Assembly (NCBI GenBank): GCA_963735925.1
Contig: CAVTMT010000003.1
Location: 1,767,463 to 1,831,462 of the forward strand
Length of the DNA: 64,000 nt
Reading direction: 5' to 3'
DNA from: an uncultured bacterium
GTDB taxonomy: Bacteria > Verrucomicrobiota > Verrucomicrobiia > Limisphaerales > J093
Part shown: piece after piece, positions 1,050 through 58,440 of the stretch
Layout of the letters: each line of letters starts with the position of its first letter
How positions within the stretch are numbered: position 1 is the stretch's first letter
Notes under the pieces: generated by a model
Database searches by the model: none
What the model was told of the DNA's origin: nothing
What the model saw: the letters and a program-made list of their open reading frames with translations, nothing else
Position numbers and translations under genes: made by a program

Positions 1050-1086
1050 TCTTGCGAGGGGGGAAAGCGGTTTCTAAGTTGCGCAG

Positions 1087-15621: not shown

Positions 15622-15645
15622 ACGCCGCCGGCCAACGACCCGCGC

Positions 15646-18979: not shown

Positions 18980-19053
18980 TGTCCGATGGTGTAATGGCAG
19001 CACAGGGGTCTTTGGAGCCCTTAGTCCAGGTTCGAATCCTGGTCGGACAGCCA
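18980..19053 (+). tRNA. tRNA-Gln (anticodon UUG), CCA encoded
   Basis: Cloverleaf folded by hand. The acceptor pairs TGTCCGA with TCGGACA (the U1:A72 pair typical of bacterial tRNA-Gln), with discriminator G. The anticodon stem is GGGGT/GCCCT and the loop is CTTTGGA, giving UUG. The T-arm is CCAGG-TTCGAAT-CCTGG. Confidence 0.8.
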
Positions 19054-32770: not shown

Positions 32771-33007
32771 ATGGTCCACCACATGGATACTTCCTGGGCG
32801 CTCGGCGGCCTCATTGCATCCGCCTTCGGCGCGGTGTTCGCGCTGGCCGCCTTCGCGTTCTGGCTGTGGATGCTCATCCACGCCATTCAGAATCGCGGCC
32901 TCACGGATTCGGAGCGCATCGTCTGGGTGCTGGTGATCATCTTCCTCAACCTCCTTGGCGCCTTGCTTTACCTGATCGTGGGCAAACCCAAGGCACCGGG
33001 GGGTTAG
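32771..33007 (+). CDS. PLDc_N-domain small membrane protein (78 aa)
   Basis: FAFWLWMLIHAIQNRGLTDSERIVWVLVIIFLNLLGALLYLIVGKPK. It starts 6 nt after the flotillin stop. Confidence 0.7.
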   Translation: MVHHMDTSWALGGLIASAFGAVFALAAFAFWLWMLIHAIQNRGLTDSERIVWVLVIIFLNLLGALLYLIVGKPKAPGG

Positions 33008-33032
33008 GCTCGCGATCACGGCCGAGACCCTC

Positions 33033-33299
33033 ATGATCACTACCATGACTCCACTCTTTGGATTCCTCTTCGGCGGTTTCGAACTGCTCCTGCTGCTGTT
33101 CCTCTTTCCCTTCACCCTCGCGCTCTTCGCGTTCTGGATCTGGATGCTCATCCATGCGATCCAGAACCGGGGTCTCACCGACTCCGAGCGCATCGTCTGG
33201 GTGCTCGTCATCATCTTCCTGCACGCCCTGGGTGCCCTGCTCTACCTGCTGATCGGCCGGCCCAAGGCAAACAACCTCCTGACGCCACCGAGGACTTGA
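33033..33299 (+). CDS. PLDc_N-domain small membrane protein (88 aa), recent tandem duplicate of 32771..33007
   Basis: FAFWIWMLIHAIQNRGLTDSERIVWVLVIIFLHALGALLYLLIGRPK. The 27-aa core is identical to that of the preceding gene. Confidence 0.7.
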   Translation: MITTMTPLFGFLFGGFELLLLLFLFPFTLALFAFWIWMLIHAIQNRGLTDSERIVWVLVIIFLHALGALLYLLIGRPKANNLLTPPRT

Positions 33300-33451
33300 T
33301 TCCACCCCGCCGGGCCAGCAGCCTCGTTCCACCGAAGGTGGCCAGACTCCGCTGGCCTGCAGACGCCGCACCCCGTCCCGCCTTGCGCCCGCCCTCCGCC
33401 GGCATACTGTTCGCTTGCGCCGCGCGGTCCCGCGGGACGAACGGCGCAGCC

Positions 33452-34681
33452 ATGAACGAGCGCCGCTTTTGCTATTTCGATCATAACGCCACGACTGCAG
33501 TCGCCCAGGAAGTCCTGGATGCCATGCTGCCCTTCTTCCGCGAGCACTGGGGCAACCCCTCGAGCGCGTACGCCTTCGGTCACGACGTCGCCCGCCACCT
33601 GGAGACCGCCCGCGCCCAAGTGGCGGCGCTGATCGGCGCGGAACCGCGCGAGGTTTTGTTCACCAGTTGTGGCACCGAAAGCAACAACGCCGCCTGGAAC
33701 AGCGCGTTGACGACCCAGCCGGACCGGCGCCACGTCGTCACCACGGCAGTCGAGCATTCCGCCAACCTCAAGTTCGCCCAGACCCTGCAGCGTCGGGGCT
33801 GCGAGGTGACCTCCCTGCCGGTGAACCCGGACGGCCAACTCGATCTGCACCAGCTCGAACAGGCGATCCGGCCGGATACCGCACTGGTTTCGGTGATGTG
33901 GGCGAACAACGAAACCGGGGTCCTGTTCCCGATCCCGGAGGTGGCGGCCATTTGCCGAAGCAAGGGGGTGCTGTGCCATACGGACGCCGTGCAAGTGGCC
34001 GGCAAGGTTCCCCTCGATGTCCGGGAAGCGGGGGTGGATTTCCTGTCGCTCAGCGGGCACAAGCTCCATGCCCCGAAGGGCATTGGCGCCCTATACGTGC
34101 GACGGCGAACGCGGTTCGCGCCTTACCTGGTCGGGGGCCACCAGGAGCGCGGCCGGCGTGGCGGCACCGAGAACGTACCGTACATCGTGGGTTTCGGTCG
34201 GGCGGCGGACCTGGCGGTGGCGCTTCTGGGTCCGGAAACCCATCGGGTGCGGGCGCTGCGCGACCGGCTGGAGTCCGGCCTGCTGGCAACGATTCCTCAA
34301 GCCGCCCGCAACGGCGCCCGCGAGCCGCGCCTGCCGAACACCAGCAACCTCGCCTTCCCGGCGGTGGAAGCGGAAGCGATGCTGATGCTGCTCGACCAGT
34401 TGGGCATCTGCGCTTCCGGCGGTTCGGCCTGCATGACGGGTTCGCTGGACCCCTCTCACGTGCTGACCGCAATGGGCTTCAGCGCGACGCGGGCACGGGG
34501 CAGCCTCCGCTTCAGCCTCGGTCGGGACACGCACGCGGGCGACGTGGATTACCTGCTCGCCACCCTGCCCGGCGTCGTCAGCAAGCTGCAAGCCATCGCG
34601 CCCGCGGGTCCGGCGCCACGGGCGCCACGCGCACCGGTGGGCGCAGCCGCGGAGTTGTCGGGCGTTCAGAACGTGAACTGA
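33452..34681 (+). CDS. cysteine desulfurase family aminotransferase class V (NifS/IscS-like)
   Basis: FDHNATT, SGHKLHAPKGIGALYVRR (PLP lysine) and the active-site loop ASGGSACMTGS. The ATG at 33452 was confirmed. The 3' end overlaps the convergent porin gene by 16 nt. Confidence 0.85.
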   Translation: MNERRFCYFDHNATTAVAQEVLDAMLPFFREHWGNPSSAYAFGHDVARHLETARAQVAALIGAEPREVLFTSCGTESNNAAWNSALTTQPDRRHVVTTAVEHSANLKFAQTLQRRGCEVTSLPVNPDGQLDLHQLEQAIRPDTALVSVMWANNETGVLFPIPEVAAICRSKGVLCHTDAVQVAGKVPLDVREAGVDFLSLSGHKLHAPKGIGALYVRRRTRFAPYLVGGHQERGRRGGTENVPYIVGFGRAADLAVALLGPETHRVRALRDRLESGLLATIPQAARNGAREPRLPNTSNLAFPAVEAEAMLMLLDQLGICASGGSACMTGSLDPSHVLTAMGFSATRARGSLRFSLGRDTHAGDVDYLLATLPGVVSKLQAIAPAGPAPRAPRAPVGAAAELSGVQNVN

Positions 34682-36150
34682 ACCTCGGCGCGCAGGAAAC
34701 TCTCCACGTCGCGCTGGCTGTAGTAATCTCCCTGCCAGACCCATTCGCCCCAGAGATGGCCGGCGATCTGTTTGCTGAACTGGTGCTTGAGGACCAGTTG
34801 CAGGTAGTGACCGCGGAAGTTGCCCTCGTCGGTGAACCGGGAGGCATTGAGCGTGCGGGTGGGATCGGACTGCGGTGCAAAGAGGGCGTTGTAATAGGCG
34901 CCCACCGTCATGTCCTTCATCGGGTTGAGGGTCCAGCCGGCGCCGAGGCGCTGGATATTGTTCAACTGGGCCACCTTCCCCCCCGTTTCCTGGACATAGG
35001 AGTAAATGTACAATTCACTCCACCGCGGCCACCGGCCCCAGAGGATGTCGAACATCTCGTCCTTGCCCGGCGTGCTCCCGTCGTCGCCCGAGAGGTACTC
35101 GAAGATAAGATGCGCCTGGTTGTTGAGCGGGTCGCGCAACAGATAGTTCAGGCTGGCGTTCGCGCCGAACGCGTCCATGTCCCGCATCTGGGTCGCGGCC
35201 ACCGGGTATTTCACCGTGGGGTCTTCCTTGCGTCCGAACTGATACGCTCCTTCGAGGGAGTAGCTCCAGTGCATCGCGGGCGTGCCGGTGAGTTTGCCGC
35301 CCACGGTATAAATGTCCGCATTGTCGCCATTGGCCAGTTCGCGGTCGTCGTGTTTGTAGATGAAGTAGCCGTCGAGCTGGGTGTTCTTGATGGACTTGTT
35401 CGAGGCATAGAAGATGCCCCCCTGCTCGTTCTGTTCCGTGAGGGCGACGTGCTGGTTGTTGATCGTCGGAATCCACTCGTCGGCATACGCGTTCTGATAG
35501 ATGCCGATGAAGTCGAGTTTGGTCTTCGCGGCCTTCAGATCGTAGGTCACCCGCGCACTGTCGAGGAAGTAGGTCCAGGAACCGTCCAGCGGTGTGCCGT
35601 CGGCGACGAGCCACCAGTTCCAGAAATCGCCCAGGACAATGTCTTGGCGGCCGGCGGCGACCGTCAGCGGTTGGTCCAGCACATTGGCCCACTTCACGTT
35701 CAGGCTGTCGGCCATGCCGTAGCGCCACTCCATGCCGGTTTGATTCTTGTAGGTCCCGACGAAGGCGGGCTCGAGCCATTCCCGCGGTTCGGCGGCAAGC
35801 CGGGCATTGACGGTCACATTCGTCACCGGCGTGACGGCCGTCCACAATCGCGCCCGAAAACGGATGACGTCCTGGGCGTGGTTGGGCAGGTCGTTACCCA
35901 GGGTGATGAGGTTGTCGTAGTACTCGTTGCGAATCCGCAGGTCGGCCCCCCACGAGAGCCAGGGCGTGGGATTCTTCACGTCCTTGATCCACTGCTGCGT
36001 GGCGCTGAGTTTGGGGGCGGCCGGCGCCCCCGCGGCGGGGGTTGCGGGCATTGCGGGTGAGGAAATGGAGGCCGACTGACTGTGGCCGGGAAGCAGCCCG
36101 GCGGTCAGTGCCAGGCCGGTGAGGAGCGAGCGTTGCGGAGTTTTTTTCAT
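34666..36150 (-). CDS. outer-membrane beta-barrel protein, alginate-export (AlgE-like) family
   Basis: Signal peptide MKKTPQRSLLTGLALTAGLLPGHS. There are alternating amphipathic beta-strands with aromatic girdles and a C-terminal …AEVQFTF ending in Phe. Confidence 0.7.
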   Translation of the reverse strand: MKKTPQRSLLTGLALTAGLLPGHSQSASISSPAMPATPAAGAPAAPKLSATQQWIKDVKNPTPWLSWGADLRIRNEYYDNLITLGNDLPNHAQDVIRFRARLWTAVTPVTNVTVNARLAAEPREWLEPAFVGTYKNQTGMEWRYGMADSLNVKWANVLDQPLTVAAGRQDIVLGDFWNWWLVADGTPLDGSWTYFLDSARVTYDLKAAKTKLDFIGIYQNAYADEWIPTINNQHVALTEQNEQGGIFYASNKSIKNTQLDGYFIYKHDDRELANGDNADIYTVGGKLTGTPAMHWSYSLEGAYQFGRKEDPTVKYPVAATQMRDMDAFGANASLNYLLRDPLNNQAHLIFEYLSGDDGSTPGKDEMFDILWGRWPRWSELYIYSYVQETGGKVAQLNNIQRLGAGWTLNPMKDMTVGAYYNALFAPQSDPTRTLNASRFTDEGNFRGHYLQLVLKHQFSKQIAGHLWGEWVWQGDYYSQRDVESFLRAEVQFTF

Positions 36151-36182
36151 GGAGGTTAGGGGGCTGAACCGTCACGGGAAAG

Positions 36183-38126
36183 TCAGGCCTTGCCTTCGAC
36201 TTTGGCTCGATCAAAGCAGGTCGCCAGGTGTTGCGCGTCGTTGGGGCGGGTAAAGGCGCTGACCAGCACCGCCGTGAGCAGCGAGAGCGGCAGTCCGATG
36301 AACAGCGGATCGACCACCGGCCAGTTGGGAGATTGCGCCAGCAGGCTGGCCTTGACCACGCCGATCACCGTGCACTCCGGCGTCTTCACGAACACCAACC
36401 AGACCGTGCTGGCGATGAAACCGACGAGCATCGAGGCGATGGCCGCCGGCCGGGTCATGCGACGCGTGAAGATGCCGCCGAAGAACGCCGGGAGAAACGT
36501 CGAGGCGCACAGACCAAAGAAGATGGCGGTCGCCCGGGCGATGATGCTCACGACGAACTGCTCCTTCTTGGCGTAATAGCCGATCAGCACCGCCAGGACC
36601 AAACCGATCAGGATGGCGAAGCGGACGATGTAGATGGTCCGGTCCGGGGCGCCTTTGGCTTGGGCGCCAGTGAGGGTCCCAAAGACGTCGCGCCCGGCCG
36701 CGGTGCCAAGGGTGTGGAACTGGCTGGAAAGCGTGCTCATCGCCGCGGCCAGCAGCGTGAGCAGAAAGACCAACCCGAACCATTTCGGCATCGCCGTGGT
36801 GATGTACAGCGGGATGATCTGGTCCGAAGCGCCCTTGGCATTGACGATGGCCAGCGAACGGCCTTGCGCCACCTGGTTCGGTGCCGCGACTCCGGACAGG
36901 TAGGGTTGGTTCTGGTCGAGGACGGCCGGCACGAGACTGCCTTCATGAATGACGCCCAGGCTGTTGGTTTCCTTGACCACCGGGAGCCATTTGCCGTCGG
37001 CGCCGAGCTTTACGGGTTGCGTGCCGGCCACGGTCTTGCCGTCCTTGGCCGTGTCCTTGACCAGGTCCACCCAGTTGCCGTCATCGCCCTTCCGCATCAA
37101 TTGCAGGATCGCGTGGCCTTTGTCGGCATTGACGGTCTTGAGCACGCGCCCCTGGAAGAGCGGACCGTGCTGCGTGAAGTAGGCGTTCGAGAGCGCGCCG
37201 GTGGTGAACGCCACGCCCGTCATGGCCAGGATGAACACGCCGCCCACGCCGACCGCGCGGTTCAACTCGCGCTTGCTCTTCACCGTCATGAACCGCACCG
37301 CCAGTTGCGGTTGGGCCAGCACGCCGATCCCGACGCCCATGACGATGGTCGAAACGACGATCCACCAGAGGTTGTACTTGGTCGCGCCGAAGCCGAACTC
37401 CGGCATCGCCGTCCAGCCGCGATGGCCAATCGCCGTGAGCGTGGCGGGGGTCAGATCCGCCAGGTCAGTCAGCGCTTGGTGTCCCGCCGTCACGCCGCCA
37501 ACGCTCGCGTAGGTGTACACGAGCAGGACTGCCATGCCGACGAACATGATCACGCCCTGCAAGGCGTCGGTGTACATCACACCTTTAAGGCCGCCAAAGA
37601 AGACATAGGCCGCCACGATCGTCGCGAAGAGCAGCAGCGCGGCGTTGTAGTCCATCTGGAACGTGGTGGCGATGAACTCGGTGCCGCCGATCAGCACGGC
37701 CGCGCCATACAACGGCATGAACAACACAATGACCGCACCGCAAAAGACCTGGATAAACCGGCTTTGGTACCGCCGGCCGAGCAACTCAGGGAACGTGTGC
37801 GCGTCCAGCCGGTGCCCGAGCGCGCGGGTCGGTCCGCCGATGAAGATGAACGCGATGAAGATCCCGATGAAGATGTTGCAGAACGTGAGCCAGAGCAGGC
37901 TCAGGCCGAACGTGCCGGCCACGCCGCCGAAACCCACGATGGCGCTGGTGGAGATGAAGGTCGCGCCGTAGCTGAGCGACATGACGAACGGATGCACCTT
38001 GCGCCCTGCCACCAAGTAATCCGTGGCGGTCTTCGTCCCGCGGTACCCCAGCCAGCCCAGGTACGCGGTCACGAACAGGTAGAGCAGGACGACGAGGATG
38101 TCGAGGAGCGCGACTTCGGCAAACAT
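36183..38126 (-). CDS. sodium:solute symporter (SSS) family transporter with about 130-aa hydrophilic insertion (paralog 2 of 2)
   Basis: SSS hallmarks (DYLVAGRKVHPFVMSLSYGATFISTSAIVGFGG; GLKGVMYTDALQGVIMF). A K/D/G-rich soluble insertion (HGPLFQGRVLK…SDQIIPLY) lies between TM blocks. The gene is 647 aa. Confidence 0.85.
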   Translation of the reverse strand: MFAEVALLDILVVLLYLFVTAYLGWLGYRGTKTATDYLVAGRKVHPFVMSLSYGATFISTSAIVGFGGVAGTFGLSLLWLTFCNIFIGIFIAFIFIGGPTRALGHRLDAHTFPELLGRRYQSRFIQVFCGAVIVLFMPLYGAAVLIGGTEFIATTFQMDYNAALLLFATIVAAYVFFGGLKGVMYTDALQGVIMFVGMAVLLVYTYASVGGVTAGHQALTDLADLTPATLTAIGHRGWTAMPEFGFGATKYNLWWIVVSTIVMGVGIGVLAQPQLAVRFMTVKSKRELNRAVGVGGVFILAMTGVAFTTGALSNAYFTQHGPLFQGRVLKTVNADKGHAILQLMRKGDDGNWVDLVKDTAKDGKTVAGTQPVKLGADGKWLPVVKETNSLGVIHEGSLVPAVLDQNQPYLSGVAAPNQVAQGRSLAIVNAKGASDQIIPLYITTAMPKWFGLVFLLTLLAAAMSTLSSQFHTLGTAAGRDVFGTLTGAQAKGAPDRTIYIVRFAILIGLVLAVLIGYYAKKEQFVVSIIARATAIFFGLCASTFLPAFFGGIFTRRMTRPAAIASMLVGFIASTVWLVFVKTPECTVIGVVKASLLAQSPNWPVVDPLFIGLPLSLLTAVLVSAFTRPNDAQHLATCFDRAKVEGKA

Positions 38127-38129
38127 GGT

Positions 38130-40049
38130 TCAGGAGGGTTGGGGGTTGAAGCACCGGGCCAGGTGAGCGGAAGCCGGCGGGCGAGTGGCCAGACTCACCA
38201 ACACGGCTGTCAGGGCAGAAAGCGGCAAGGCAATGAGCACCGGGTCCACGACCGGCCAGTTGGGATGCGCTTCGAGCAGGCTGGCCTTGACCAGGCCGAT
38301 GGCGCCGCACTCCGGGGTCTTGACCAGCGCGACCCACGCCAGGGTCGCGCCGAAGCCGACCAGCATCGAAACGGTCGCACCCGCCTTGGTCATCCGCGGC
38401 CAGTACAGGCCGCCGATGAGCGCCGGCAGAAACGCCGCGGCGCACATGCCGAAGAAAATGGCCGTGGCCCGGGCGATGATGTACTCGCCCCGCGCATAGT
38501 GGCCGATGCCCACCGCCACCACCAACCCGATCAGGATCGCGGTGCGCACAATGAGTATCGTCCGGTCGGGCCCGCCGCCACCACCCATCCGACCGAACAA
38601 CTGTTGGTAGATATCGCGTCCGGCCGCCGTGCCCAGGGTGTGGAACTGGCTCGACAACGTGCTCATCGCCGCCGCCAGCAGCGTCAGCAGGAAGACCAGG
38701 CCGAACCATCTGGGCATCGCCGCGCCGATGTAGGTGGGAATGATCTGGTCCGAGTTGCCCTTGGCCGCGACGATCGAAATGCTCCGGCCGCTCACGACTT
38801 CGTTCGGCCCAACGCGCACCGGAAGGCGGCCCGCGTCCAGCAACGCAGGAATTACCGCACCTTCGCGCACGACTCCCAGATGGTTGGTCTCCCTGGCCAC
38901 GGGCAGCCAATGTCCGGCGGCGTCCACCAGCGGCTCTTGGAGCACGTTGGTCGTGCTGGCGCCGACGGTTTCCTTGACAACGTCGAGCCACTCGCCGGCG
39001 GCGTTGCGGCGCATCAACTGGAGCAACGCGTGCGGGCGCTGATCGCCGAGTTTCTGCAATACCCGCCCCTCGAACACCGGGCCGTGCAGTGCGAAGAAGA
39101 CGTTCGAGAGCGCGCCGGTGGTGTACGCCACTCCCACCATCGCCAGGATGAACACCGCGCCGACGCCGACGGCTCGGTTCAGCTCGCGCCGGCTCTTCAC
39201 GGTCATGAAGCGGACGACCAGTTGCGGCTGCGCCAGCACTCCGATGCCCACGCCCAGCACGATGGTCGAAACGACGATCCACCAAAGGTTGTACTGTCGG
39301 TCGCCGAAGCCGAACTGCGGCATCGCCGTCCAGCCCCGGTGCCCGATGGCCGCCAGGTTCGCCGGCACCAGGTCGGCGAGCCCGGTCAGTTGTCGGTGGC
39401 CTTCGACCACCCCGCCGACGCGCGAGTAGGTGGTGACTAGCAGCACGGCCATTCCCGCGAACATGATGACCCCCTGCAACGCGTCGGTGTACATCACACC
39501 CTTCAGACCGCCGAAGAACACATAGGCGGCCACGATGCCGGCCAGCGTCAGGAGCGCCGCGTCGTACGGGATCTGAAGGGCGGTCGTGATGAATTCGGTG
39601 CCGCCGATCAGCACCGCGGCCCCGTACAGCGGCATGAACACGGCGATCACCAGCGCCGTGAACACCTGGAGAAACCGGCTTTGGAAGCGCCGCCCCAGCA
39701 ATTCGGGAAACGTGTGCGCGTCCAAGGCGTGCCCCAACCGACGGACGCGGGCGCCCAGAAACACGAAGGCGATAAGGATGCCGACGAAGATGTTGAACAC
39801 CACCAACCAGAGCAGGCTCATCCCGAACAGACCGGCCACGCCGCCGAACCCCACGATGGCGCTGGTGGAAATGAAGGTTGCGCCATAGCTGAGCGACATC
39901 ACGAACGGATGCGCTTTGCGTCCGGCCAGCAAATAGTCCGACGTGGTCTGTGTGCCGCGGTAGCCCAGCCAGCCGAGGTAGGCCGTTGCCGCGAGATAAA
40001 GCAGCACGACGGCGACATCGAGGAGCGGGACTTGAGCCAGGCAGGGCAT
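38130..40049 (-). CDS. sodium:solute symporter (SSS) family transporter with about 130-aa hydrophilic insertion (paralog 1 of 2)
   Basis: About 70 % identical to the downstream paralog. Only 3 nt separate its stop from the next start, and it has the same inserted domain (HGPVFEGRVLQ…SDQIIPTY). Confidence 0.85.
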   Translation of the reverse strand: MPCLAQVPLLDVAVVLLYLAATAYLGWLGYRGTQTTSDYLLAGRKAHPFVMSLSYGATFISTSAIVGFGGVAGLFGMSLLWLVVFNIFVGILIAFVFLGARVRRLGHALDAHTFPELLGRRFQSRFLQVFTALVIAVFMPLYGAAVLIGGTEFITTALQIPYDAALLTLAGIVAAYVFFGGLKGVMYTDALQGVIMFAGMAVLLVTTYSRVGGVVEGHRQLTGLADLVPANLAAIGHRGWTAMPQFGFGDRQYNLWWIVVSTIVLGVGIGVLAQPQLVVRFMTVKSRRELNRAVGVGAVFILAMVGVAYTTGALSNVFFALHGPVFEGRVLQKLGDQRPHALLQLMRRNAAGEWLDVVKETVGASTTNVLQEPLVDAAGHWLPVARETNHLGVVREGAVIPALLDAGRLPVRVGPNEVVSGRSISIVAAKGNSDQIIPTYIGAAMPRWFGLVFLLTLLAAAMSTLSSQFHTLGTAAGRDIYQQLFGRMGGGGGPDRTILIVRTAILIGLVVAVGIGHYARGEYIIARATAIFFGMCAAAFLPALIGGLYWPRMTKAGATVSMLVGFGATLAWVALVKTPECGAIGLVKASLLEAHPNWPVVDPVLIALPLSALTAVLVSLATRPPASAHLARCFNPQPS

Positions 40050-40106
40050 AATCGTGGCCGACGCCGTCGGCGAACGGAGTCGGGCGGGCCGGCGGACCGG
40101 GCCGGC

Positions 40107-40277
40107 CTAAAGTTTCTCCTCGAGTTTGTCCTCGACCTTGGCCCAGCGGACATCGTCCGCCCGGACTGAATCGTCCCCCCGGTTCCAATTGCGCCAGCTA
40201 TAAATGACGCAGGCCAGAGCGCTCACGAGGCAGAGCACGTAAGCCAGCCACACCCACGGATCAGGAATTCCCAACAT
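40107..40277 (-). CDS. small single-TM membrane protein (56 aa) preceding the SSS transporters; possible SSS accessory subunit (DUF3311/DUF4212-like)
   Basis: MLGIPDPWVWLAYVLCLVSALACVIYSWRNWNRGDD…. An AAAGGA Shine-Dalgarno-like motif lies 9 nt upstream of the ATG at 40277. The family assignment is tentative. Confidence 0.5.
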   Translation of the reverse strand: MLGIPDPWVWLAYVLCLVSALACVIYSWRNWNRGDDSVRADDVRWAKVEDKLEEKL

Positions 40278-40291
40278 CACAGAGTCCTTTC

Positions 40292-40732
40292 TCAGGCTGC
40301 CAGGCGCCGGAACAACTCGACTTCTCCCACCACGTTGACGCCGGCCTGGCGGAGCGCCTCCACCGCCGGGTCGGGCCGATCGAACCGAAAAACCAGCAGG
40401 CCTTTGTCGCCCTGCTTCAGCGTGAAGGCGTACATGTACTCGACGTTCACGCCGGCCCGCTCGAACACCTCGAGCAGTTCGGCCAGGCCGCCGGGCTTGT
40501 CCGCGACCTCCACCGCCACCACCTCGGTGACCTTGACCACGCACCCCTTCGCCTCGAGCAGTTGCTTGGCCTGCGCCCAGTCGCGCACCACCACCCGCAG
40601 GATGCCGAACTGCTGGGTGTCGGCCAGCGACAGCGTGATGAGGTTGATGCCGGCCGCGCCCAGCCAACGGCACGGCGCGCTGAGCGTGCCCGGACGGTTT
40701 TCGAGGAAGATGGAGAGTTGCTTGAGTTTCAT
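40292..40732 (-). CDS. ACT-domain protein (tandem ACT)
   Basis: MKLKQLSIFLENRPGTLSAPCRWLGAAGINLITLSLAD… and a second ACT-like half. This is the typical partner of ior/paaK gene sets. Confidence 0.75.
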   Translation of the reverse strand: MKLKQLSIFLENRPGTLSAPCRWLGAAGINLITLSLADTQQFGILRVVVRDWAQAKQLLEAKGCVVKVTEVVAVEVADKPGGLAELLEVFERAGVNVEYMYAFTLKQGDKGLLVFRFDRPDPAVEALRQAGVNVVGEVELFRRLAA

Positions 40733-40757
40733 GGCGCCGGCTCCGGGTTAACCCCGT

Positions 40758-42086
40758 TCACAGTTTCCGCTTGTCGATCACGCGCTTGGCCTTGCCCTCG
40801 CTCCGCTGGAGGGTATGCGGCTCCACCAGGCGCACCTGGGCCCGCAGGCCGGTGATGCGCTCGATGGCCTGCGAGAGCCGTTGCTGGAGTTTCTCCAAGG
40901 CGCCCACCGTGTCGCTGAAGAACTCCTCGGTGACCTCGACCTGGACCTCCATTTCGTCGAGCCCCTTCACGCGATCGACGATGATCTGGTAATGCGGCAG
41001 CGTGCCTTCCACGGCCAGCAACGCCGCCTCGATCTGCGACGGAAACACGTTCACGCCGCGGATGATCATCATGTCGTCGGTCCGGCGGGCGATGCGCTTG
41101 ATGCGGCGCAGCGTCCGGCCGCAGGCGCAGGGCTCCTCGTTCAAGGCGCTGATGTCCCGCGTGCGGTAACGGATCATCGGCATGGCGCGTTTGCAGAGCG
41201 TGGTGAGCACCAACTCGCCCTCGGTGCCGTCCGGCACCGGTTGGCCGGTTTCGGGCTCGATGACCTCCGGATAAAACATGTCTTCGAAAATGTGCGGCCC
41301 CGCCTGGTGCGGACACTCCATCGCCACGCCCGGCCCGATGATCTCGCTCAGGCCGTAGATGTCGTACGCCTTGAGGTTGGTCTCCGCCTCGATGCGCCGC
41401 CGCATCGCTTCGGTCCAGGGTTCGGCGCCGAACACGCCGGCCCGCAGCGGGAGTTGCTTCAGGTCCACGCCCAGTTCGCCGGCGCGTTCGGTGAGGTGGA
41501 TGAAATAGCTCGGCGTGCAACAGATCGCGGTCACGCCAAAATCCTTCATGATCATGATCTGGCGGTCGGTGTTGCCGCCGGAGATTGGAATCACGCTGGC
41601 GCCCAACGCCTCAGCCCCGTAATGCGCGCCCAGGCCGCCGGTAAACAAGCCGTAACCGTACGCGTTCTGGATGATGTCGCCGCGGTGCAGCCCGCAGGCC
41701 AGGAAGCTGCGCTTCATCACCGTCGCCCAGTCATCGACGTCCGCCTGCGTGTACGCCACCACGATCGGCTTCCCGGTGGTGCCGCTCGAAGCGTGGAACC
41801 GGACGATTTCCTCCGTGGGGCTGGCGAACAGCCCGAACGGGTAGGTGTCGCGCAGATCCGTCTTGGTCGTGAACGGCAGCCGCGCCAGGTCGTCCAGCGA
41901 TTGGAGATCGGCCGGCCCGAGGCCGCGCTCCTCCAGGCGCCGGCGGAACAAGGGGACGCGGTCGTACGCGCGCTGGACGATCGTCCGGAGCCGGTGCAGT
42001 TGGAGCGCGCGCAATTGCGGCAGCGGCAGAAAGTCCACCGCGCTGGCGGGATCGAACGGGCCGGTGCAATTCGTCTTCGAATTCAT
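40758..42086 (-). CDS. phenylacetate--CoA ligase family protein (PaaK-like arylacetate/acyl-CoA ligase)
   Basis: AMP-binding motif [19 protein letters not shown], and a PaaK-family C-terminus. The start MNSKTN… is confirmed at 42086. Confidence 0.88.
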
Positions 42087-42094
42087 GGCGGAAA

Positions 42095-42589
42095 TCAGGC
42101 GGGGGGCTGGCCACCGCTGCCGAGGGCGAAGGCCTTCAAGTTCGCGGCCAGGAGCGCGGGGCCGAAACTCGCCGCCAGGGCGGCACGCCAGCATTCCGCG
42201 GGGACGCCTTCCAGGTGGCGGCTCAGCAGGCCGATCATGGCGACGTTGAAACTGCGTTTGTTCTCGAGCTGGCCCACATCAATCATCGACGGTTCGAGCA
42301 ACACGCCGCCCGGCCGCAGGTAACCGCGGTTGTTCTCGAGTTGGTCCGGCGCGAGCACGACCAGGTAATCCGCTTCGCCGAAAGGCACCATCGGGCTGAA
42401 CACCTTTTCCCCGAAGCGCACGTCGCTGTTCACCGAACCGCCGCGCTGGCTCATGCCGTGGACTTCGGCCTTCTTGACGTCGAACCCGGCCCGGAACACC
42501 GCGTTGGCCAGAATGTCCGACGCTTTCAGCACGCCCTGGCCTCCCAGGCCGGCCACTACGACACTGGTAACGCTGTTTCGCATGCGCAC
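42095..42589 (-). CDS. iorB: indolepyruvate/2-oxoacid:ferredoxin oxidoreductase subunit beta (IorB, POR-gamma-like)
   Basis: [21 protein letters not shown]…, a POR gamma-domain signature. Confidence 0.85.
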
Positions 42590-44208
42590 TCGCTCTCCGC
42601 CTCGACGGCCTGGCGTTCGTACTCCTTGAGTTGTTTGGCGATCAGAATGCAGGGCCGGCGAACGATGATCACCGCCAGTTCGCCGCTGTTCAGGCAGTCG
42701 GTCAAAACCCGCCCGAATTCGTCGGAGCCCAGCCGCGGCTCCACGACCTCCACCCGGCGAATGCCCAGGCCGCGGGCCAGGTCTTCGAACCGTACGCGCC
42801 CGGTCGCCTGATGGTCCAACGTGCGGCCGGTGCCGGGATGCTCCTGGTGCCCGGTCATCGCGGTGGTCGAATTGTCTAGGATGATCAGCACGTGGCCGCC
42901 CGGCGGCGGGTTATAGACCATCTCCACCAGGCCGCTGATGCCGCTGTGCACGAACGTGCTGTCGCCGATGATGCTCACCACCCGCTTCGCCTGGTCGGGC
43001 GGCAGGACGTGCCGCAGTCCGAGTCCGACGCCGAGGCTCGCCCCCATGCACACGCAGGTGTCCATCGCCTCGAACGGGGCCAGTGCCCCCAGCGTGTAAC
43101 AGCCGATGTCGCCCGCGACAATCGCCTGCATTTCGTGCAGCGTGCTGAACACCTGGCGGTACGAGCACGCGTCACAGAGCTGCGGCGGCTTGCCCGGCGG
43201 CCGGACCGGCTCGGCCGAAGTGTCGCCCGCGAGGATGCGGCGCACCCGTGCCACGTCGAATTCGCCGTACCGGTACATCTCCGCCTTGCCTTCCACGGCG
43301 ATGCCCGCGGCGCGGATGGCGTCCAGCAGGTACGGGTCGCCTTCCTCAAGCACGAAGCAACGTTGTACGAAGCCCGCGAACGACCGGATCAACTCCAGCG
43401 GCAACGGGTGGGTCATGCCGAGCTTGAGCACGCTGGCGGCCGGGGCGGCGTCGCGGGCATGGGCGTAAGCCACGCCGGAGGCGATGATGCCCAGTTCCCG
43501 GCCCGCCTCGAAAACCCGGTTGAGCGGAGCGGTCTCGTTCCAGGCCGCGATCTCGGTCAGCTTCCGGCGTAATCGCCGGTGGGCCGCGCGCGCATAGGCG
43601 GGGATCATCACCCGGCCACGCACATCGCGCACGAACGACGCCGGTTTCAAGCCTTCCACCGGCGGTCCCGGCCGCACCACGCTTTGGCTGTGGCAAACCC
43701 GCGTCGTGACCCGGAACAGGACCGGGATCTGCCACTTCTCGGAAATCTCGACCGCCTGCAAAAAGAAATCGTACGCCTCCTGCGAATCGCCCGGCTCAAG
43801 CATCGGCACCCCCGCCGCGACCGCGTAACGGCGGTTGTCCTGTTCGTTCTGGCTCGAGGCCATGCCCGGGTCGTCCGCGGAGATCACGATCAGCGCGCCG
43901 GTCACGCCCGTGTAGGCCACGGTGAAAAACGGATCGGCGGCGACGTTGAGTCCGACGTGTTTCATCGTGGCCAGCGCCCGCGCCCCCCCGTAGGCCGCGC
44001 CAATGCAAACCTCCAAGGCAACCTTCTCGTTCGGGGACCATTGGGCGTGTCCGCCCACGCGCGCGAAGTTCTCCAGGATTTCCGTGGACGGCGTGCCGGG
44101 ATAGCCGGCGCCGAGCGCCACGCCGGCGTGTTTCGCCGCCAGGGCGATGGCCTCGTTGCCACTGAGCAAACGCCGCTCTCCGTCTTGGTCTGCCGGACTC
44201 ATGGACAT
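42556..44208 (-). CDS. iorA: indolepyruvate:ferredoxin oxidoreductase subunit alpha (IorA), apparently lacking the C-terminal 2x[4Fe-4S] ferredoxin domain
   Basis: LSGNEAIALAAKHAGVALGAGYPGTPSTEI and the TPP motif IIGDSTFVHSGISGLVEMV. The start MSMSP… is confirmed at 44208. The protein ends …[34 protein letters not shown] with no CxxCxxCxxxCP pairs. The 3' end overlaps iorB by 34 nt. Confidence 0.85.
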   Translation of the reverse strand: MSMSPADQDGERRLLSGNEAIALAAKHAGVALGAGYPGTPSTEILENFARVGGHAQWSPNEKVALEVCIGAAYGGARALATMKHVGLNVAADPFFTVAYTGVTGALIVISADDPGMASSQNEQDNRRYAVAAGVPMLEPGDSQEAYDFFLQAVEISEKWQIPVLFRVTTRVCHSQSVVRPGPPVEGLKPASFVRDVRGRVMIPAYARAAHRRLRRKLTEIAAWNETAPLNRVFEAGRELGIIASGVAYAHARDAAPAASVLKLGMTHPLPLELIRSFAGFVQRCFVLEEGDPYLLDAIRAAGIAVEGKAEMYRYGEFDVARVRRILAGDTSAEPVRPPGKPPQLCDACSYRQVFSTLHEMQAIVAGDIGCYTLGALAPFEAMDTCVCMGASLGVGLGLRHVLPPDQAKRVVSIIGDSTFVHSGISGLVEMVYNPPPGGHVLIILDNSTTAMTGHQEHPGTGRTLDHQATGRVRFEDLARGLGIRRVEVVEPRLGSDEFGRVLTDCLNSGELAVIIVRRPCILIAKQLKEYERQAVEAESECACETALPVS

Positions 44209-44221
44209 CGTTGGACTCGTA

Positions 44222-44698
44222 TCATTGCCTTGCCTTGAGCGCCCTCGGGAGCGCGGCGAACCGTTCCCGAAACCACGCCGGTGGCCGGATCGCCCGCCCG
44301 TCACGGTCGGCAAAGGCGTGAATCGTGCATCCGCGCACCACGCCCTTGCGGGTCTCGACCTGCAGAATCTCGACGTCGGTCCGCACGCGCGCCCGGCCGG
44401 CGAAACCGAGCGTCGTCGTCATCTCCAGCCAGTCGTCGTACCGCGCCCGACCGAGGTACTCGACCTTGGCTTCGACCAAAGGGAGGAACAGCCCCCGCTC
44501 CTCGAGTTGAGCGTACGGCAGATCGAGGCTGCGCAGCAGTTCAGTGCGCCCCATCTCGAACCATTCCAGCGGGCGCGAGTTGTAGAACGTCCCCATCTGA
44601 TCGGTCTCGCTGTAGCGCACCCGGAATCGGAGACTGTGCCGGGGCGACGCCACACCGGGACGCAACGCGTCGGTCGGGGCAGGCGTCGTGCTTGACAT
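44222..44698 (-). CDS. acyl-CoA thioesterase, 4HBT/YbgC-like hotdog fold
   Basis: …RFRVRYSETDQMGTFYNSRPLEWFEMGRTELLRSL… is the YbgC-type N-terminal signature. It is the first gene of the ior operon. Confidence 0.78.
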   Translation of the reverse strand: MSSTTPAPTDALRPGVASPRHSLRFRVRYSETDQMGTFYNSRPLEWFEMGRTELLRSLDLPYAQLEERGLFLPLVEAKVEYLGRARYDDWLEMTTTLGFAGRARVRTDVEILQVETRKGVVRGCTIHAFADRDGRAIRPPAWFRERFAALPRALKARQ

Positions 44699-44933
44699 GC
44701 ACGAAATTGAGCCCTCTCCAGGCGACGGCGACTACCACGGGCTTGGCCATTTCTTAGCAGATTTTGCCGTGTGAACGGCGCCGCTTGACGCCGCCGCGCA
44801 GTCCATTCCGTCGGCCAGGAGGCGGGGGGCGTTCGGCCCGGCCGGGTCCGGGCTAGGCGACGGTGGTTTTCATTTCGCGAAATCGTCATTGCAATTGCCC
44901 GGGCCCCACGGCAACGTCTGCCCCGCGAATCGT

Positions 44934-45011
44934 CGGGGCGTAGCGTAGCCTGGCTAGCGCGCTTGTTTCGGGTACAAGAGGTCGTGAGTTCGAATCTCAC
45001 CGCCCCGACCA
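44934..45011 (+). tRNA. tRNA-Pro (anticodon CGG), CCA encoded
   Basis: Hand fold: acceptor CGGGGCG/CGCCCCG with discriminator A and CCA. D-stem GCGT/GCGC. Anticodon stem CTTGT/ACAAG with loop TTCGGGT, giving CGG with G37. T-arm AGGTC? GTGAG-TTCGAAT-CTCAC. Total length 78 nt. Confidence 0.85.
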
Positions 45012-45149
45012 TTCTCCGCCGGGGCAGACCGGCAGGCCCGGCTGCAGCGGTGCATCCCACCTTTGGCGGGCGGGCGGCGACAAGAAGTTGAACCGCGACC
45101 CGGCCAGCCTGGCACACGGACGCAATGGCGATTTCCAGACGTGGCGAGC

Positions 45150-45710
45150 ATGAACAAGCTGATCCTGAATCTGTCCGTGGTGCTTTCGTTCGCGCTGTGC
45201 GGGCTGTGCCTGGTACAGTGGAAGCGGGAGGCCAATCTCACCCACGACAAATCCAAGCTCACCGAGGACGTGTACACGAACAAGGTGGTCATTCAGCAAT
45301 TGGAGATCACCCTGAAGCGCACCCAGGATGAGGTTAAGCGTCTGGAGGGGATCCGCACCGGGCTCGAACAGACCGTCGAGACCAACACGGCCAAGATCAA
45401 GGCGCTCTCGGAGGAACTCGCCGACACAATCCAGGACCGGGACGAAAAGCGTAACCAGGTGGAGCAGTTCAAGACCGCGTTCGAGCAGGCCAACGAGAAT
45501 ATCAAGACGCAGAACGAGGCGATCCTCAAACAAAACGAGATGCTGAAGACCGTCGCCGAACAACGCGACCAGCAGATCGAGGAGTACAAGAAGCTGCTCG
45601 AGAAGTACAACCAGGTGGTCGGCGAGTACAATAAACTCGTCGATGAGGTCAAGAAGGCGAACGAAGCCATCGAAGCGGCCGCGCAGAAATCGCCGGGCTC
45701 CAAGAAATGA
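45150..45710 (+). CDS. membrane-anchored coiled-coil protein (186 aa)
   Basis: N-terminal TM (LILNLSVVLSFALCGLCLV) followed by about 150 aa of K/E/Q-rich heptad-like sequence. Local GC is about 57 %, lower than the surroundings, which tracks the amino-acid bias. Confidence 0.6.
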   Translation: MNKLILNLSVVLSFALCGLCLVQWKREANLTHDKSKLTEDVYTNKVVIQQLEITLKRTQDEVKRLEGIRTGLEQTVETNTAKIKALSEELADTIQDRDEKRNQVEQFKTAFEQANENIKTQNEAILKQNEMLKTVAEQRDQQIEEYKKLLEKYNQVVGEYNKLVDEVKKANEAIEAAAQKSPGSKK

Positions 45711-45856
45711 TCCCCGGCGGCCGCCGGCGACATTGGCCATTCGCCGGGCGCCCGACCGGATGGCAAGGCATCGGGGGAGACCGCGTTGGCGGGCCGAGAA
45801 TTCGCCGGACTTCGGGTTTGACGCTCCGGTGCTTCCGGGTTAGAGATGCGGAGTCA

Positions 45857-47017
45857 ATGTTCGAACAGGCTGCATATCTTTACCGATGGGGACTCGCCGG
45901 CCTCGCGCTCGCCGGGTTGGGGAGTCAGGGCCCCGCGGCTCTCGCCGGCGAAAAGGTCACGTTCTCCGATTCCGCCAGCAAGCCGAGTTTTCGCGACGAT
46001 GCCAAGCGCAACCCCGGACGCTCGGTCAGTTTCGATAATCCGTTCGAGAGTTTTGGCGCGCGCGGCAGCAGTTCGTTGCAGGGCGTGACCGCGCGTCCCT
46101 TTGCCCCAAGCTCCGCCGCGGCGCAGCCGGAAGCCGCCCCGCTCACCAAACGCGAGCTCGACCTCTTTAACGAGCGGCGCAACTGGATCTTGCAGGCCCC
46201 GGATGGGGGCCGGTTGGGGGAAACCGACGCCAACAAGGCCTTCGGTGTGGAGGGTTTTCAAAGCCGGCCTTCAGTCGGTGCAGGTTCCGGTTTGGACAGT
46301 CGCAAGGGTGACTTGGTGAATTATTACGAGCACCTCGAATCCACCTCCGGCACCGGTTCCGCCGCGCACTCGCCCGCAGCCCAGCGCAATGAGGCGAATC
46401 GATTCTCGGATTCCAATCTGCCGGCCGGCGACTCGGGCGGGGCCCCGGCCAATCCGTTCGCCGGTTCCAGCGGATTCTCAGCCCTCACTCCGTTGGGTGA
46501 CAGTCCGTATGGAAGAAGCCCGTTTGCGATTCCTCCGACGCGTACCGGGGAGCAGCCGAACAACTGGCTGCAGAACGCACTGCGTCAGATCACCCAGTCG
46601 ATCAGCAAGAAAGCCGCCAGCCAGCAGGATGCCGGCAATCTTGGCGGCGGCGCGCAACCCACCGACCTGAGCGGCATGGCAATGGTCTTGGGCCAACAAC
46701 CCATTTCCAGTCCGATCGCGGCCTCACCCATTACCTCGTTGGATCCGGTGTCGTCCTACCCGGACTCGACGCGCGAGGCCCTGAATCCGGTGGTGGGACA
46801 AACCACGACTCCCAAAGCCTCCCCGCTGGATCCGAACTTCGCGTCAGAGAAGATGGACAAGCAATTGCAGTTTCCGACCTCGGCCGCGCTGCAAGGTCTG
46901 GGCGCCAACACCTTCCTCGCTCCATCGCCCGCGAAGACGCTGGATTCCCCGTTGGTCGAGCGCCGCTCGCTCCAGTCCATCAAGGTCCAATTCGACCTGC
47001 CCAAGCGTTCGTTCTGA
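45857..47017 (+). CDS. low-complexity Ser/Gly/Pro/Ala-rich secreted protein
   Basis: Signal peptide MFEQAAYLYRWGLAGLALAGLGSQGPAALA, with the ATG confirmed at 45857. No domain is recognisable. Confidence 0.5.
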   Translation: MFEQAAYLYRWGLAGLALAGLGSQGPAALAGEKVTFSDSASKPSFRDDAKRNPGRSVSFDNPFESFGARGSSSLQGVTARPFAPSSAAAQPEAAPLTKRELDLFNERRNWILQAPDGGRLGETDANKAFGVEGFQSRPSVGAGSGLDSRKGDLVNYYEHLESTSGTGSAAHSPAAQRNEANRFSDSNLPAGDSGGAPANPFAGSSGFSALTPLGDSPYGRSPFAIPPTRTGEQPNNWLQNALRQITQSISKKAASQQDAGNLGGGAQPTDLSGMAMVLGQQPISSPIAASPITSLDPVSSYPDSTREALNPVVGQTTTPKASPLDPNFASEKMDKQLQFPTSAALQGLGANTFLAPSPAKTLDSPLVERRSLQSIKVQFDLPKRSF

Positions 47018-58436: not shown

Positions 58437-58440
58437 AGTA

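Follow-up and report, generated by a model that had tools for sequence, protein, structure and literature searches.

A probable nine-gene ior-paaK operon with symporters and a predicted outer-membrane channel in Verrucomicrobiota may serve the salvage of arylacetates

In which direction do metabolites pass through a gene cluster that encodes, side by side, an indolepyruvate:ferredoxin oxidoreductase (IOR), a phenylacetate-coenzyme A (CoA) ligase, a thioesterase and transporters of its own? The question is raised by a locus on contig CAVTMT010000003.1 of an uncultured verrucomicrobial bacterium (assembly GCA_963735925.1), from which a stretch of 64,000 nucleotides (nt) was analyzed. This stretch is referred to as the 64-kb window; all positions are given in its numbering, and protein families were assigned with NCBIfam and Pfam profiles. 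A preliminary description of this DNA had read the cluster as a unit that imports acids derived from aromatic amino acids, oxidises them and releases the product. The reading preferred here, to which a probability of roughly 0.55 is given, is that the operon scavenges an arylacetate, in this bacterium most likely phenylacetate, for the matching aromatic amino acid.

In the route proposed, an Alginate_exp-type barrel would let the arylacetate pass the outer membrane, and one or both of two Na+-coupled symporters, together with a single-helix accessory subunit, would bring it into the cytoplasm. The PaaK1-like ligase would then convert phenylacetate and ATP to phenylacetyl-CoA, which the short two-subunit IOR would carboxylate reductively, with CO2 and reduced ferredoxin, to phenylpyruvate. 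A transaminase encoded elsewhere would form phenylalanine from the latter. The ACT-pair protein would sense the amino acid and turn the ligase off at plenty, and the YbgC-type thioesterase might act as a safety valve by which CoA is freed from excess or dead-end aryl-CoA esters. We infer the transported substrate, the direction of the flux, the regulation of the ligase by the ACT protein and the role of the thioesterase from the observations described below.

Nine genes on the minus strand (Table 1) most likely form one operon. All of them run in one direction with short gaps, no internal terminators were found and the gene order is kept in relatives. From the thioesterase to the second symporter gene (SSS2; SSS stands for the sodium:solute symporter family), the gaps amount to 13, -34, 8, 25, 14, 57 and 3 nt when the most plausible starts are used, and the ninth gene, encoding the porin, begins 32 nt past SSS2. 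Terminator-like hairpins are not in excess in the region (8, compared to a mean of 10.1 in shuffled sequence), and both hairpins of the minus strand are weak and situated within coding sequence. The GC content at third codon positions (0.81–0.89 in each larger open reading frame (ORF), in a genome of 64–68% GC) marks these frames as coding. Since the following gene, encoding an Aminotran_5 protein, is convergent and overlaps the end of the porin gene by 16 nt, the operon ends after the porin gene. The identical gene set in the same order was found in a relative, locus L001, with approximately 80% protein identity, and also in locus L084, so that the arrangement is not due to chance. The limits of the operon are not set by the promoter and terminator scans, nor do these scans speak for a break within it.

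Most of what the preliminary description had stated on the anatomy of the locus was recovered. Its eight minus-strand genes are all present between 36183 and 44698, their identities are backed by the NCBIfam and Pfam profiles, and the recomputed distances agree with the gaps of 3 to 58 nt and the 34-nt overlap of iorA and iorB reported there. The spacing and the order kept in relatives likewise bear out a tightly packed unit on one strand. The unit extends past SSS2, however, to the gene of an outer-membrane channel that had been overlooked.

Table 1. Position of the nine operon genes, of elements associated with them and of neighbouring features in the 64-kb window.
Feature	Position	Strand	Remark
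Probable operon	34666-44698	-	nine genes
Thioesterase	44222-44698	-	158 amino acids
IorA	42556-44208	-	550 amino acids, ATG at 44208
IorB	42095-42589	-	164 amino acids, GTG start
PaaK-like ligase	40758-42086	-	442 amino acids
ACT-pair protein	40292-40732	-	146 amino acids
Symporter small accessory protein	40107-40277	-	56 amino acids
SSS1	38130-40049	-	639 amino acids
SSS2	36183-38126	-	647 amino acids
All-beta insert of SSS2 (from structure model)	about 36852-37166	-	residues ~321-425
Predicted Alginate_exp outer-membrane beta-barrel channel (porin)	34666-36150	-	494 amino acids
Conserved motif of ~40 nt, GGCAAAATCTGCTAAGAAATGGCCAAGCCCGTGGTAGTCG	44729-44768	-	31-70 nt 5' of the thioesterase ATG
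tRNA-Pro(CGG)	44934-45011	+	divergent
Aminotran_5 (class-V aminotransferase) gene	33296-34681	+	convergent
NAGPA protein	1078-2301	+	
NAGPA protein	2253-3734	+	
NAGPA protein	8081-10192	+	
Laminin_G_3/Ig-repeat protein	10601-14707	-	1368 amino acids
ORF upstream of URO-D	15622-16053	+	
ORF with URO-D match	16023-16715	+	
tRNA-Gln(TTG)	18980-19053		
MerR-type regulator	58438-59385	+	B12-binding domains

Which of these genes belong together in function was assessed by two scans. The first was anchored on an alignment of the symporters and was searched with the nine proteins of the window; it covered 79 loci from 79 species, 36 of which reached 6 kb or more to either side of the symporter (full-flank loci). 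In 71 of the 79 loci (34 of the 36 full-flank loci), a gene for the accessory protein lay close to that of the symporter, as a rule directly upstream of it; the porin, typically just downstream, was encoded in 36 (20). PaaK was found in 31 loci (19), ACT in 29 (19) and IorA in 23 (14, with IorB), while the thioesterase was present in three loci only, all of them full-flank. Among the full-flank loci, IorA never occurred without PaaK, and PaaK was present without IorAB in five. Among the enzymes, it is neither IOR nor the thioesterase but the ligase-ACT pair that accompanies the transporter most consistently. The tie between the transporters and the ior-paaK-ACT genes, as suggested previously, is upheld by these numbers. 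In Planctomycetota, the usual order is accessory-SSS-porin-IorA-IorB-PaaK-ACT-PaaK2-ACT2. Unbiased clustering of the ORFs in the 79 loci revealed only two other recurrent neighbours, an Amidohydro_2 protein (13 loci) and an ATPase of the ATP-binding cassette (ABC) type (5 loci). The Amidohydro_2 protein (PF04909, approximately 270 amino acids) is encoded near the accessory-SSS pair, mostly in Planctomycetota and mostly just upstream of the accessory gene (L015:263-988, L016:8659-9462, L017:7752-8564, L021:8357-9160, L023:4307-5119 and eight further loci), and is not encoded in the window. This family includes reversible aromatic-acid decarboxylases.

The second scan followed the thioesterase subfamily through metagenomes and yielded 80 loci, 51 of which extended for 600 nt or more downstream of the thioesterase gene. 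In 52 of the 80, one or more further components of the system were present. The gene next after the thioesterase encoded IorA in 15, PaaK in six, a symporter in three and the porin in one of the 51 loci, so that the thioesterase adjoins another component in 25 of 51 and its proposed tie to the module is supported. The arrangements varied considerably: thioesterase-PaaK-ACT-accessory-SSS-porin without IOR in between (L107, L109), thioesterase-PaaK-ACT (L104, L142), thioesterase-PaaK with a 4-nt overlap (L003), and thioesterase-SSS'-porin-PaaK2-ACT2-IorA-IorB with a different SSS type (L101, L111). A transporter of the major facilitator superfamily (MFS) takes the place of the SSS protein in L003, and a second SSS type was found in L101, L111 and L145. 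The system thus appears to have recruited one MFS transporter and no fewer than two SSS lineages, and their substitution for one another indicates that transport of the ligase's substrate is the conserved logic. The second SSS type is shorter, 28–33% identical and apparently devoid of the beta insert described below; it was seen beside porin, ligase and ACT genes in several loci of Verrucomicrobiota (L006:17768-18706, L007:9041-10552, L009:7840-9345, L101:2689-4146, L111:5566-7020, L145:1557-3065).

Taken over both scans (79 genomes and 80 metagenome loci), the modules co-occur in Verrucomicrobiota and in Planctomycetota. Gene content, tight packing on one strand and co-localisation of the modules across phyla are established. 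That five modules, namely thioesterase, IorAB, ligase-ACT, inner-membrane transporter and porin, are shuffled and yet stay together is strong evidence for one common function.

The predicted product of the fourth gene is a phenylacetate-CoA ligase of the AMP-forming PaaK type. The protein matched TIGR02155 with an E-value of 3e-171 (569.5 bits, below the cut-off of 646.3), contains PF00501 (60.7 bits) and the PaaK-type C-terminal domain PF14535 (AMP-binding_C_2, 117 bits), and aligns over its full length to PDB 2Y27, 2Y4O and 4R1L. It is 51% identical (E 5e-139) to 2Y27, the PaaK1 of Burkholderia, and the residues at the pocket positions, Y143, F148, A154, A221, I243 and P252 (YFAAIP), are the same as in PaaK1, the aryl pocket of which is reportedly formed by Y136, F141, A147, A214, I236 and P245 (Law & Boulanger 2011). 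This list maps onto the sequence of 2Y27 with a constant offset of +5. The ligase stands very near to a PaaK specific for phenylacetate. With a single ligase in the window and a PaaK1 pocket in it, a flow from phenylacetate to phenylalanine is the most likely one.

Downstream of the ligase gene lies that of the ACT-pair protein, which matched Pfam ACT_8 with 98.5 bits, is also matched by ACT and ACT_AHAS_ss, and is related to PDB 2F06 (E 8e-20). A same-strand ACT gene followed the paaK gene in 35 of 44 cases. Two paaK paralogues were observed in many relatives (L015, L018, L021, L024, L031, L035, L043, L050, L077 and others); in the 64-kb window, no second copy of ior or paaK and no ferredoxin gene was found, and only the SSS pair is paralogous. 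In the loci with two paaK genes, a YF(A/V/F/L)A(I/V)P pocket is combined with either MF(L/M)A(S/C)P or FFLGNP. Ligases of the YF type are paired with ACT proteins 42–67% identical to that of the window, those of the MF(L/M)A(S/C)P type with a diverged ACT class (27–36% identical), and the FFLGNP class is the sole one without a downstream ACT gene. Each ACT-paired ligase class thus has its own diverged ACT class, i.e. the two co-vary. The pocket classes suggest that the ligases differ in arylacetate specificity, and relatives with two or three classes probably handle further arylacetates. For the ACT-pair protein, a role as amino-acid-sensing regulatory partner of the ligase is proposed on the basis of its family and its pairing.

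If the ligase ran in reverse, from arylacetyl-CoA, AMP and pyrophosphate (PPi) to arylacetate, CoA and ATP, it would gain a role in an oxidative pathway, and the genes of IOR and ligase do adjoin with a gap of only 8 nt. An AMP-forming acetyl-CoA synthetase of Syntrophus aciditrophicus reportedly runs backwards and makes ATP in this manner. Such a use needs a physiology with high PPi, turns the thioesterase into a counter-productive enzyme and leaves the ligase-linked importers and the porin unexplained, and is regarded as exceedingly improbable.

IorA is, according to profile and domain matches, the fused alpha/beta subunit of an indolepyruvate/phenylpyruvate:ferredoxin oxidoreductase in a short form, with both substrates predicted. 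It matched TIGR03336 (IOR_alpha) over profile positions 2–556 of 595 (E 1.2e-160, 535.7 bits, cut-off 650.9), and POR_N and TPP_enzyme_C are its only Pfam domains. IorB was assigned to Pfam POR (PF01558, 109.6 bits) as a gamma-type subunit and to NF005322 (E 5e-42, 143.8 bits compared to a cut-off of 237). The pair shows the subunit architecture of IOR, i.e. an IorA with POR_N and a thiamine pyrophosphate (TPP)-binding part and a separate, small gamma-type IorB; the overlap of 34 to 35 nt between both genes recurs in L001, L003 and L004. A generic 2-oxoglutarate or pyruvate oxidoreductase was rejected, since the other models for 2-oxoacid:ferredoxin oxidoreductases (OFOR) gave E-values of 1e-8 to 1e-21 (KorA, OorA and PorA 1e-8 to 1e-15), leaving IOR_alpha approximately 140 orders of magnitude ahead. 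In this respect the assignment made in the preliminary description holds. The best PDB matches of IorA are alpha subunits of other OFOR enzymes at E 1e-14 or weaker; to our knowledge, no IOR structure has been solved.

A C-terminal 2x[4Fe-4S] ferredoxin domain was not found in IorA, neither as a Fer4 Pfam match nor as a CxxCxxCxxxCP motif, and the protein ends approximately 30 residues past its last conserved cysteine. Cys345, 348, 370, 385 and 387 do not vary among the 23 sequences compared, and Cys520 is present in 22 of them; IorA accordingly has the cysteine set for one TPP-proximal [4Fe-4S] cluster, the ligands of which are predicted to be among these six. The short form, ending right past the last cysteine, was found in 20 of 22 symporter-linked homologues. 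The ferredoxin domain is kept only in the other two, at L061:2345-4102 and L082:1925-3655, which belong to a metagenome-assembled genome (MAG) of Brocadiaceae and an unclassified MAG, and no Fer4 domain was found in any of the 120 best database homologues of IorA. Close homologues are merely named 'thiamine pyrophosphate-dependent enzyme' by NCBI. Because the cut-offs were missed for IorA, IorB and PaaK and the archaeal ferredoxin domain is absent, the three proteins are taken as family relatives and not as certified equivalogs.

The direction of the pathway was deduced from the company these enzymes keep. SSS proteins are Na+-coupled importers. Together with an AMP-forming ligase that uses free arylacetate, they make a direction opposite to that of the preliminary description likely; in a sequence of import, oxidation and release, a ligase that consumes arylacetate would stand idle, and transporters left there as serving 'uptake or export' are, as sodium:solute symporters, uptake systems. 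As the ligase is the enzyme found most consistently with the transporter, the simplest candidate for the transported solute is the substrate of the ligase. IOR is the only enzyme able to use arylacetyl-CoA in the operon, in the 64-kb window or in the recurrent neighbourhood, which points to arylpyruvate as the product, and a single transamination would turn this into the amino acid. Proteins of the ACT type typically sense amino acids in biosynthesis, and the presence of one argues for an anabolic direction. In Bacteroides, the IOR-linked AMP-forming ligase was assayed as an arylacetate-CoA ligase, and as such ligases favour acyl-CoA synthesis, IOR is considered there to be probably anabolic, as in methanogens (PMC13285125, 2026). 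PMC4162585, citing Porat et al., likewise describes that aryl acids feed aromatic amino-acid synthesis via IOR (MMP0713/0714) in M. maripaludis.

Arylacetyl-CoA might also be a point of convergence for degradation, with imported arylacetate entering through the ligase and arylpyruvate through IOR, and with the intermediate being broken down by a pathway encoded elsewhere for carbon and energy. A porin, an SSS permease and PaaK do form the entry to phenylacetate catabolism in denitrifiers and in Pseudomonas, and convergence on phenylacetyl-CoA is known from anaerobic phenylalanine degradation. Genes for such a degradation (paaABCDE, padBCD, padEFGHI or benzoyl-CoA reductase) were found neither in the 64-kb window nor among the recurrent neighbours of the 79 loci, however, and sensors of the ACT type are typical of biosynthetic and not of catabolic control. 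A catabolic funnel of this kind is highly improbable.

Several observations count against salvage of arylacetates as the function of this operon. Roughly one in two symporter homologues, predominantly among the more distant, has no ligase gene nearby. The symporters themselves gave their best matches to models of PutP (E 1e-50) and PanF (1e-39), both below the cut-offs, while the monocarboxylate models ActP and MctC reached only 31–69 bits (cut-offs 670–1099, E 1e-13 to 1e-19). Homology alone therefore does not point to arylacetate, and an amino acid is a possible substrate. A ligase and a thioesterase at the head of the same operon amount to a futile, ATP-consuming cycle unless specificity or Km prevents it, and no transaminase or ferredoxin was found in the operon or in the 64-kb window. 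The convergent class-V aminotransferase was tried as the missing transaminase and dismissed, as it lies on the opposite strand and is not kept beside the cluster in L001. Finally, according to a review, the homologous enzyme PPFOR is the main contributor to phenylacetate in B. thetaiotaomicron, by a proposed route via phenylacetyl-CoA and an acyl-CoA thioesterase (PMC10809373), and the thioesterase-IorA-IorB head of the operon looks just like this route.

These last points lead back to oxidation and release, in which the symporters would import aromatic amino acids or arylpyruvates, IOR would form arylacetyl-CoA and reduced ferredoxin, and the thioesterase would set free an arylacetate that leaves the cell, be it as a fermentation end product or, as may be, as the auxins phenylacetate and indoleacetate. 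The thioesterase, iorA and iorB genes do follow each other head to tail, with a gap of 13 nt at the start, and iorA is the gene next after the thioesterase in 15 of the 51 metagenome loci; the sequence PPFOR, phenylacetyl-CoA, thioesterase, phenylacetate is described for gut Bacteroides (PMC10809373); and the proximity of the symporters to PutP, a proline importer, compared to the acetate and monocarboxylate models makes import of amino acids conceivable. What this explanation lacks is a role for the AMP-forming ligase and the ACT protein, which are the transporter's most consistent partners. The thioesterase, taken for the committed last step in the preliminary description, is the least conserved part near the symporter (3 of 36 loci) and occurs in L107 and L109 in operons with ligase, ACT, transporter and porin without an adjacent IOR. 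Furthermore, export is not provided for by importers of the SSS type, the unit encodes no transaminase, and hydrolysis of the thioester loses the energy that fermenters save by phosphotransacylase and kinase or by ADP-forming ligases (PMC13285125). On this balance, oxidation and release is unlikely to be the function. With salvage of arylacetates as the function, the absence of the thioesterase near most symporters and its retention beside ligases without an adjacent IOR fit the role of a valve.

The cluster could also be a node used in both directions, with IOR and thioesterase acting at an excess of aromatic amino acids, uptake, ligase and IOR acting at scarcity, and the ACT protein serving as the switch that prevents a futile cycle. 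Enzymes of the IOR type are reversible and both uses are documented (PMC13285125, PMC4162585, PMC10809373). An enzyme that forms acyl-CoA and one that hydrolyses it are indeed encoded together with a ligase-paired protein of an amino-acid-sensor type. On the other hand, all nine genes seem to lie on one transcript, so that switching would be purely allosteric, binding of the ACT protein to the ligase or to an amino acid is a supposition, and the thioesterase is missing from most loci with the other parts, which makes an oxidative branch no general feature. A node of this type is considered quite unlikely, and salvage of arylacetates is retained as the preferred function.

Both symporters contain the Pfam domain SSF (PF00474), with 175.6 bits for SSS1 and 168.3 bits for SSS2, and are 69.5% identical to each other. 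In the closer loci of Verrucomicrobiota, the relatives are nearer to SSS2 than to SSS1 (the copy of L001 is 80% identical to SSS2); judged by these identities, SSS1 is a diverged paralogue of SSS2 and the tandem an old duplication. The closer verrucomicrobial relatives mostly have one symporter copy, and one accessory gene precedes the pair in the window. Tandem or duplicated symporters were also observed in L023 (Kuenenia), L031, L032 and L043. By model scores, the symporters lie outside the ActP/PhaJ/MctC monocarboxylate subfamily. An AlphaFold model of SSS2 (pLDDT 74.7) consists of the SSS helix bundle and an all-beta insert of approximately 100 amino acids between two transmembrane helices, with pLDDT values up to approximately 90. 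According to the positive-inside rule, applied to the loops around the flanking helices of the model, this insert is probably periplasmic. In a Foldseek search, the SSS2 model matched human SGLT2-MAP17 best, and NIS, SiaT, SMCT1 and vSGLT as well, with a probability of 1.00; the fold is of the LeuT type.

The protein of 56 amino acids encoded 57 nt upstream (5') of SSS1 matched NF045580, 'symporter small accessory protein', over the full profile (positions 1–33) with 69.4 bits at a cut-off of 35, and its counterpart in L001 is called PF28215 (Symport_access). A single transmembrane helix at its N-terminus is followed by a charged tail; no Pfam match to MAP17, YjcH or DUF4212 was found. The cluster of 90% identity that contains this protein also lists tetratricopeptide proteins of Parabacteroides with 475 amino acids, one of them as its representative, which looks like an artefact of database clustering. 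The product of the ninth gene is predicted to be an outer-membrane beta-barrel of the Alginate_exp family (PF13372, 48 bits, gathering cut-off 25.2). Its N-terminus, MKKTPQRSLLTGLALTAGLL, resembles a signal peptide and its C-terminus, EVQFTF, ends with a phenylalanine; a sequence search against solved structures gave no meaningful match.

The thioesterase at the head of the operon is assigned to the hotdog-fold acyl-CoA thioesterases of the YbgC/4HBT_2 type on account of its matches to Pfam 4HBT_2 (PF13279, 51.4 bits, cut-off 25.5) and TIGR00051 (64.9 bits, slightly below the cut-off of 68.7); its closest relatives in the PDB are YbgC and 4-hydroxybenzoyl-CoA thioesterases. Asp33 (in RVRYSETDQMG), presumably the catalytic aspartate of YbgC/4HBT thioesterases, is invariant in 17 of 17 homologues. 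PaaI frees CoA from excess or dead-end aryl-CoA esters in the aerobic phenylacetate pathway. No PaaI model was among the NCBIfam matches of the thioesterase, and because homology to PaaI was not found, a PaaI-like role is an analogy only.

A control region of 235 nt separates the thioesterase start from the divergent gene of tRNA-Pro. The block of approximately 40 nt given in Table 1 is the sole well-conserved part of the upstream alignment of the window, L001 and L084, and may serve the operon as promoter or operator. No sigma-70-like site was detected in the promoter scan of the region, conserved block included, and no Rfam family at the upstream block. A riboswitch or leader RNA was rejected, as an Rfam scan of positions 33000-46500 (E up to 1) returned only the tRNA-Pro and a chance match. 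The operon contains no regulator gene.

The best homologues of the encoded proteins stem from MAGs of Verrucomicrobiota annotated as Limisphaerales or Pedosphaerales, several of them with peat or palsa isolate names, and the carrier presumably is a soil or peat Verrucomicrobium. Genes for ValRS, PurA, GGT, an ABC exporter and N_methyl/DUF1559 proteins are located in the neighbourhood, the latter being typical of Planctomycetota, Verrucomicrobiota and their relatives (the PVC superphylum). A horizontally transferred island was rejected as an origin of the cluster, since its GC content (0.645–0.675) equals that of the surroundings and the flanks are housekeeping genes (ValRS, PurA, GGT). Besides tRNA-Pro, a second tRNA, for glutamine, is encoded in the window. 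Three paralogous NAGPA (phosphodiester glycosidase) proteins are encoded within 10 kb, beside a large Laminin_G_3/Ig-repeat protein. An ORF with a URO-D (uroporphyrinogen decarboxylase) match covers profile positions 140–342 only, and the ORF overlapping it upstream has no Pfam match; the pair could reflect a frameshift, a truncation of the gene or a wrongly assigned start. The architecture of the MerR-type regulator with B12-binding domains is one that we liken, from knowledge of the family, to the light-responsive repressor CarH.

Beyond the single locus, it is possible, though put forward with considerable doubt, that a dedicated, hitherto undescribed salvage of arylacetates such as phenylacetate and indole-3-acetate is common to the Verrucomicrobiota and Planctomycetota living in peat, wetland and sediment. 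Such a system would consist of a new, substrate-specific family of outer-membrane channels, an SSS importer that has a beta-domain in the periplasm and a single-helix subunit resembling MAP17, class-specific arylacetate-CoA ligases, every one under an ACT-pair amino-acid sensor of its own, and a ferredoxin-domain-less IOR acting as CO2-fixing arylpyruvate synthase. If so, the carriers in anoxic soil would make aromatic amino acids from the waste of others or from auxins instead of through the shikimate pathway. These poorly cultured but abundant peat and wetland bacteria would recycle phenylacetate into amino acids, and those relatives that have additional classes of ligase would probably do the same with indoleacetate or hydroxyphenylacetate. 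Fermentation waste and plant auxins would thereby be linked to anabolism and ferredoxin-dependent CO2 fixation. Provided that the direction is right, a testable function is gained for three so far uncharacterised families, namely the NF045580-associated symporter clade, its 56-amino-acid partner and the Alginate_exp-like porin clade. For the stand-alone ACT-pair protein, represented by structure 2F06, the locus suggests a role in feedback control of the ligase. The result also bears on the direction of IOR/PPFOR in Bacteroides, where phenylacetate is medically relevant. Should the oxidative alternative be true, the locus would be an ordinary module of aromatic amino-acid fermentation. Existing knowledge is not overturned.

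Literature searches revealed no description of a coupling of symporter, accessory protein and porin to ior-paaK, nor of the accessory protein, and nothing relevant on the system in Verrucomicrobia or Planctomycetes. As regards known systems, the enzymes at the core make up the familiar ior-paaK(-ACT) cluster. The iorAB-paaK cluster of Bacteroides has the trio in common with the window, i.e. the fused alpha/beta IorA, the small IorB and the AMP-forming ligase of the PaaK family (E 8e-115 to 4R1L), as well as the ACT-pair protein (E 8e-20 between that of the window and 2F06 of B. thetaiotaomicron). The ligase pocket differs, reading YFAAIP in the window as in proteobacterial PaaK1 and SFFASP in 4R1L of Bacteroides. 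The same question of direction is posed there, with the anabolic answer given by PMC13285125 and the catabolic one by PMC10809373.

For the anabolic IOR of methanogens (MMP0713/0714 of M. maripaludis, and Methanobacterium thermoautotrophicum), the same path from aryl acid via aryl-CoA and arylpyruvate to the amino acid has been proposed in PMC13285125 and in PMC4162585. The archaeal prototypes presumably carry a C-terminal 2x[4Fe-4S] domain in IorA. The profile match of the window's IorA breaks off at position 556 of 595, and a Fer4 motif is absent from it. We know of no dedicated uptake system described for the archaeal IOR pathway.

Such a system is present in the pha/paa catabolon of Pseudomonas putida, which comprises the SSS permease PhaJ/PaaL, the porin PhaK/PaaM, the ligase PhaE/PaaK and the thioesterase PaaI. 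The logic is the same, with a specific outer-membrane channel, an SSS permease, PaaK and a hotdog thioesterase encoded together, and the ligase is a true homologue. The transport parts, in contrast, are non-orthologous: the symporters reach only E 1e-13 to 1e-14 to models of the ActP type, the porin is of the Alginate_exp and not the OprD type, and the thioesterase is YbgC/4HBT_2-like and not PaaI-like. The enzyme downstream of the ligase also differs, being an IOR of the O2-sensitive type in the window and the oxygenase PaaABCDE in P. putida.

A small single-pass partner of an SSS protein, as in the window, is known from SGLT2-MAP17, from ActP-YjcH of E. coli and from SSS proteins of the VC_2705 type with DUF4212. 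Compared to these pairs, the 56-amino-acid protein forms a family of its own (NF045580/PF28215), and its symporter has the extra all-beta insert. MAP17 is a single-helix accessory subunit, and to regard the small protein as a symporter subunit of this kind is a useful analogy. Compared to Bacteroides, the window thus holds the ior-paaK trio in one operon with a predicted porin, two symporters, a small putative accessory subunit and a thioesterase.

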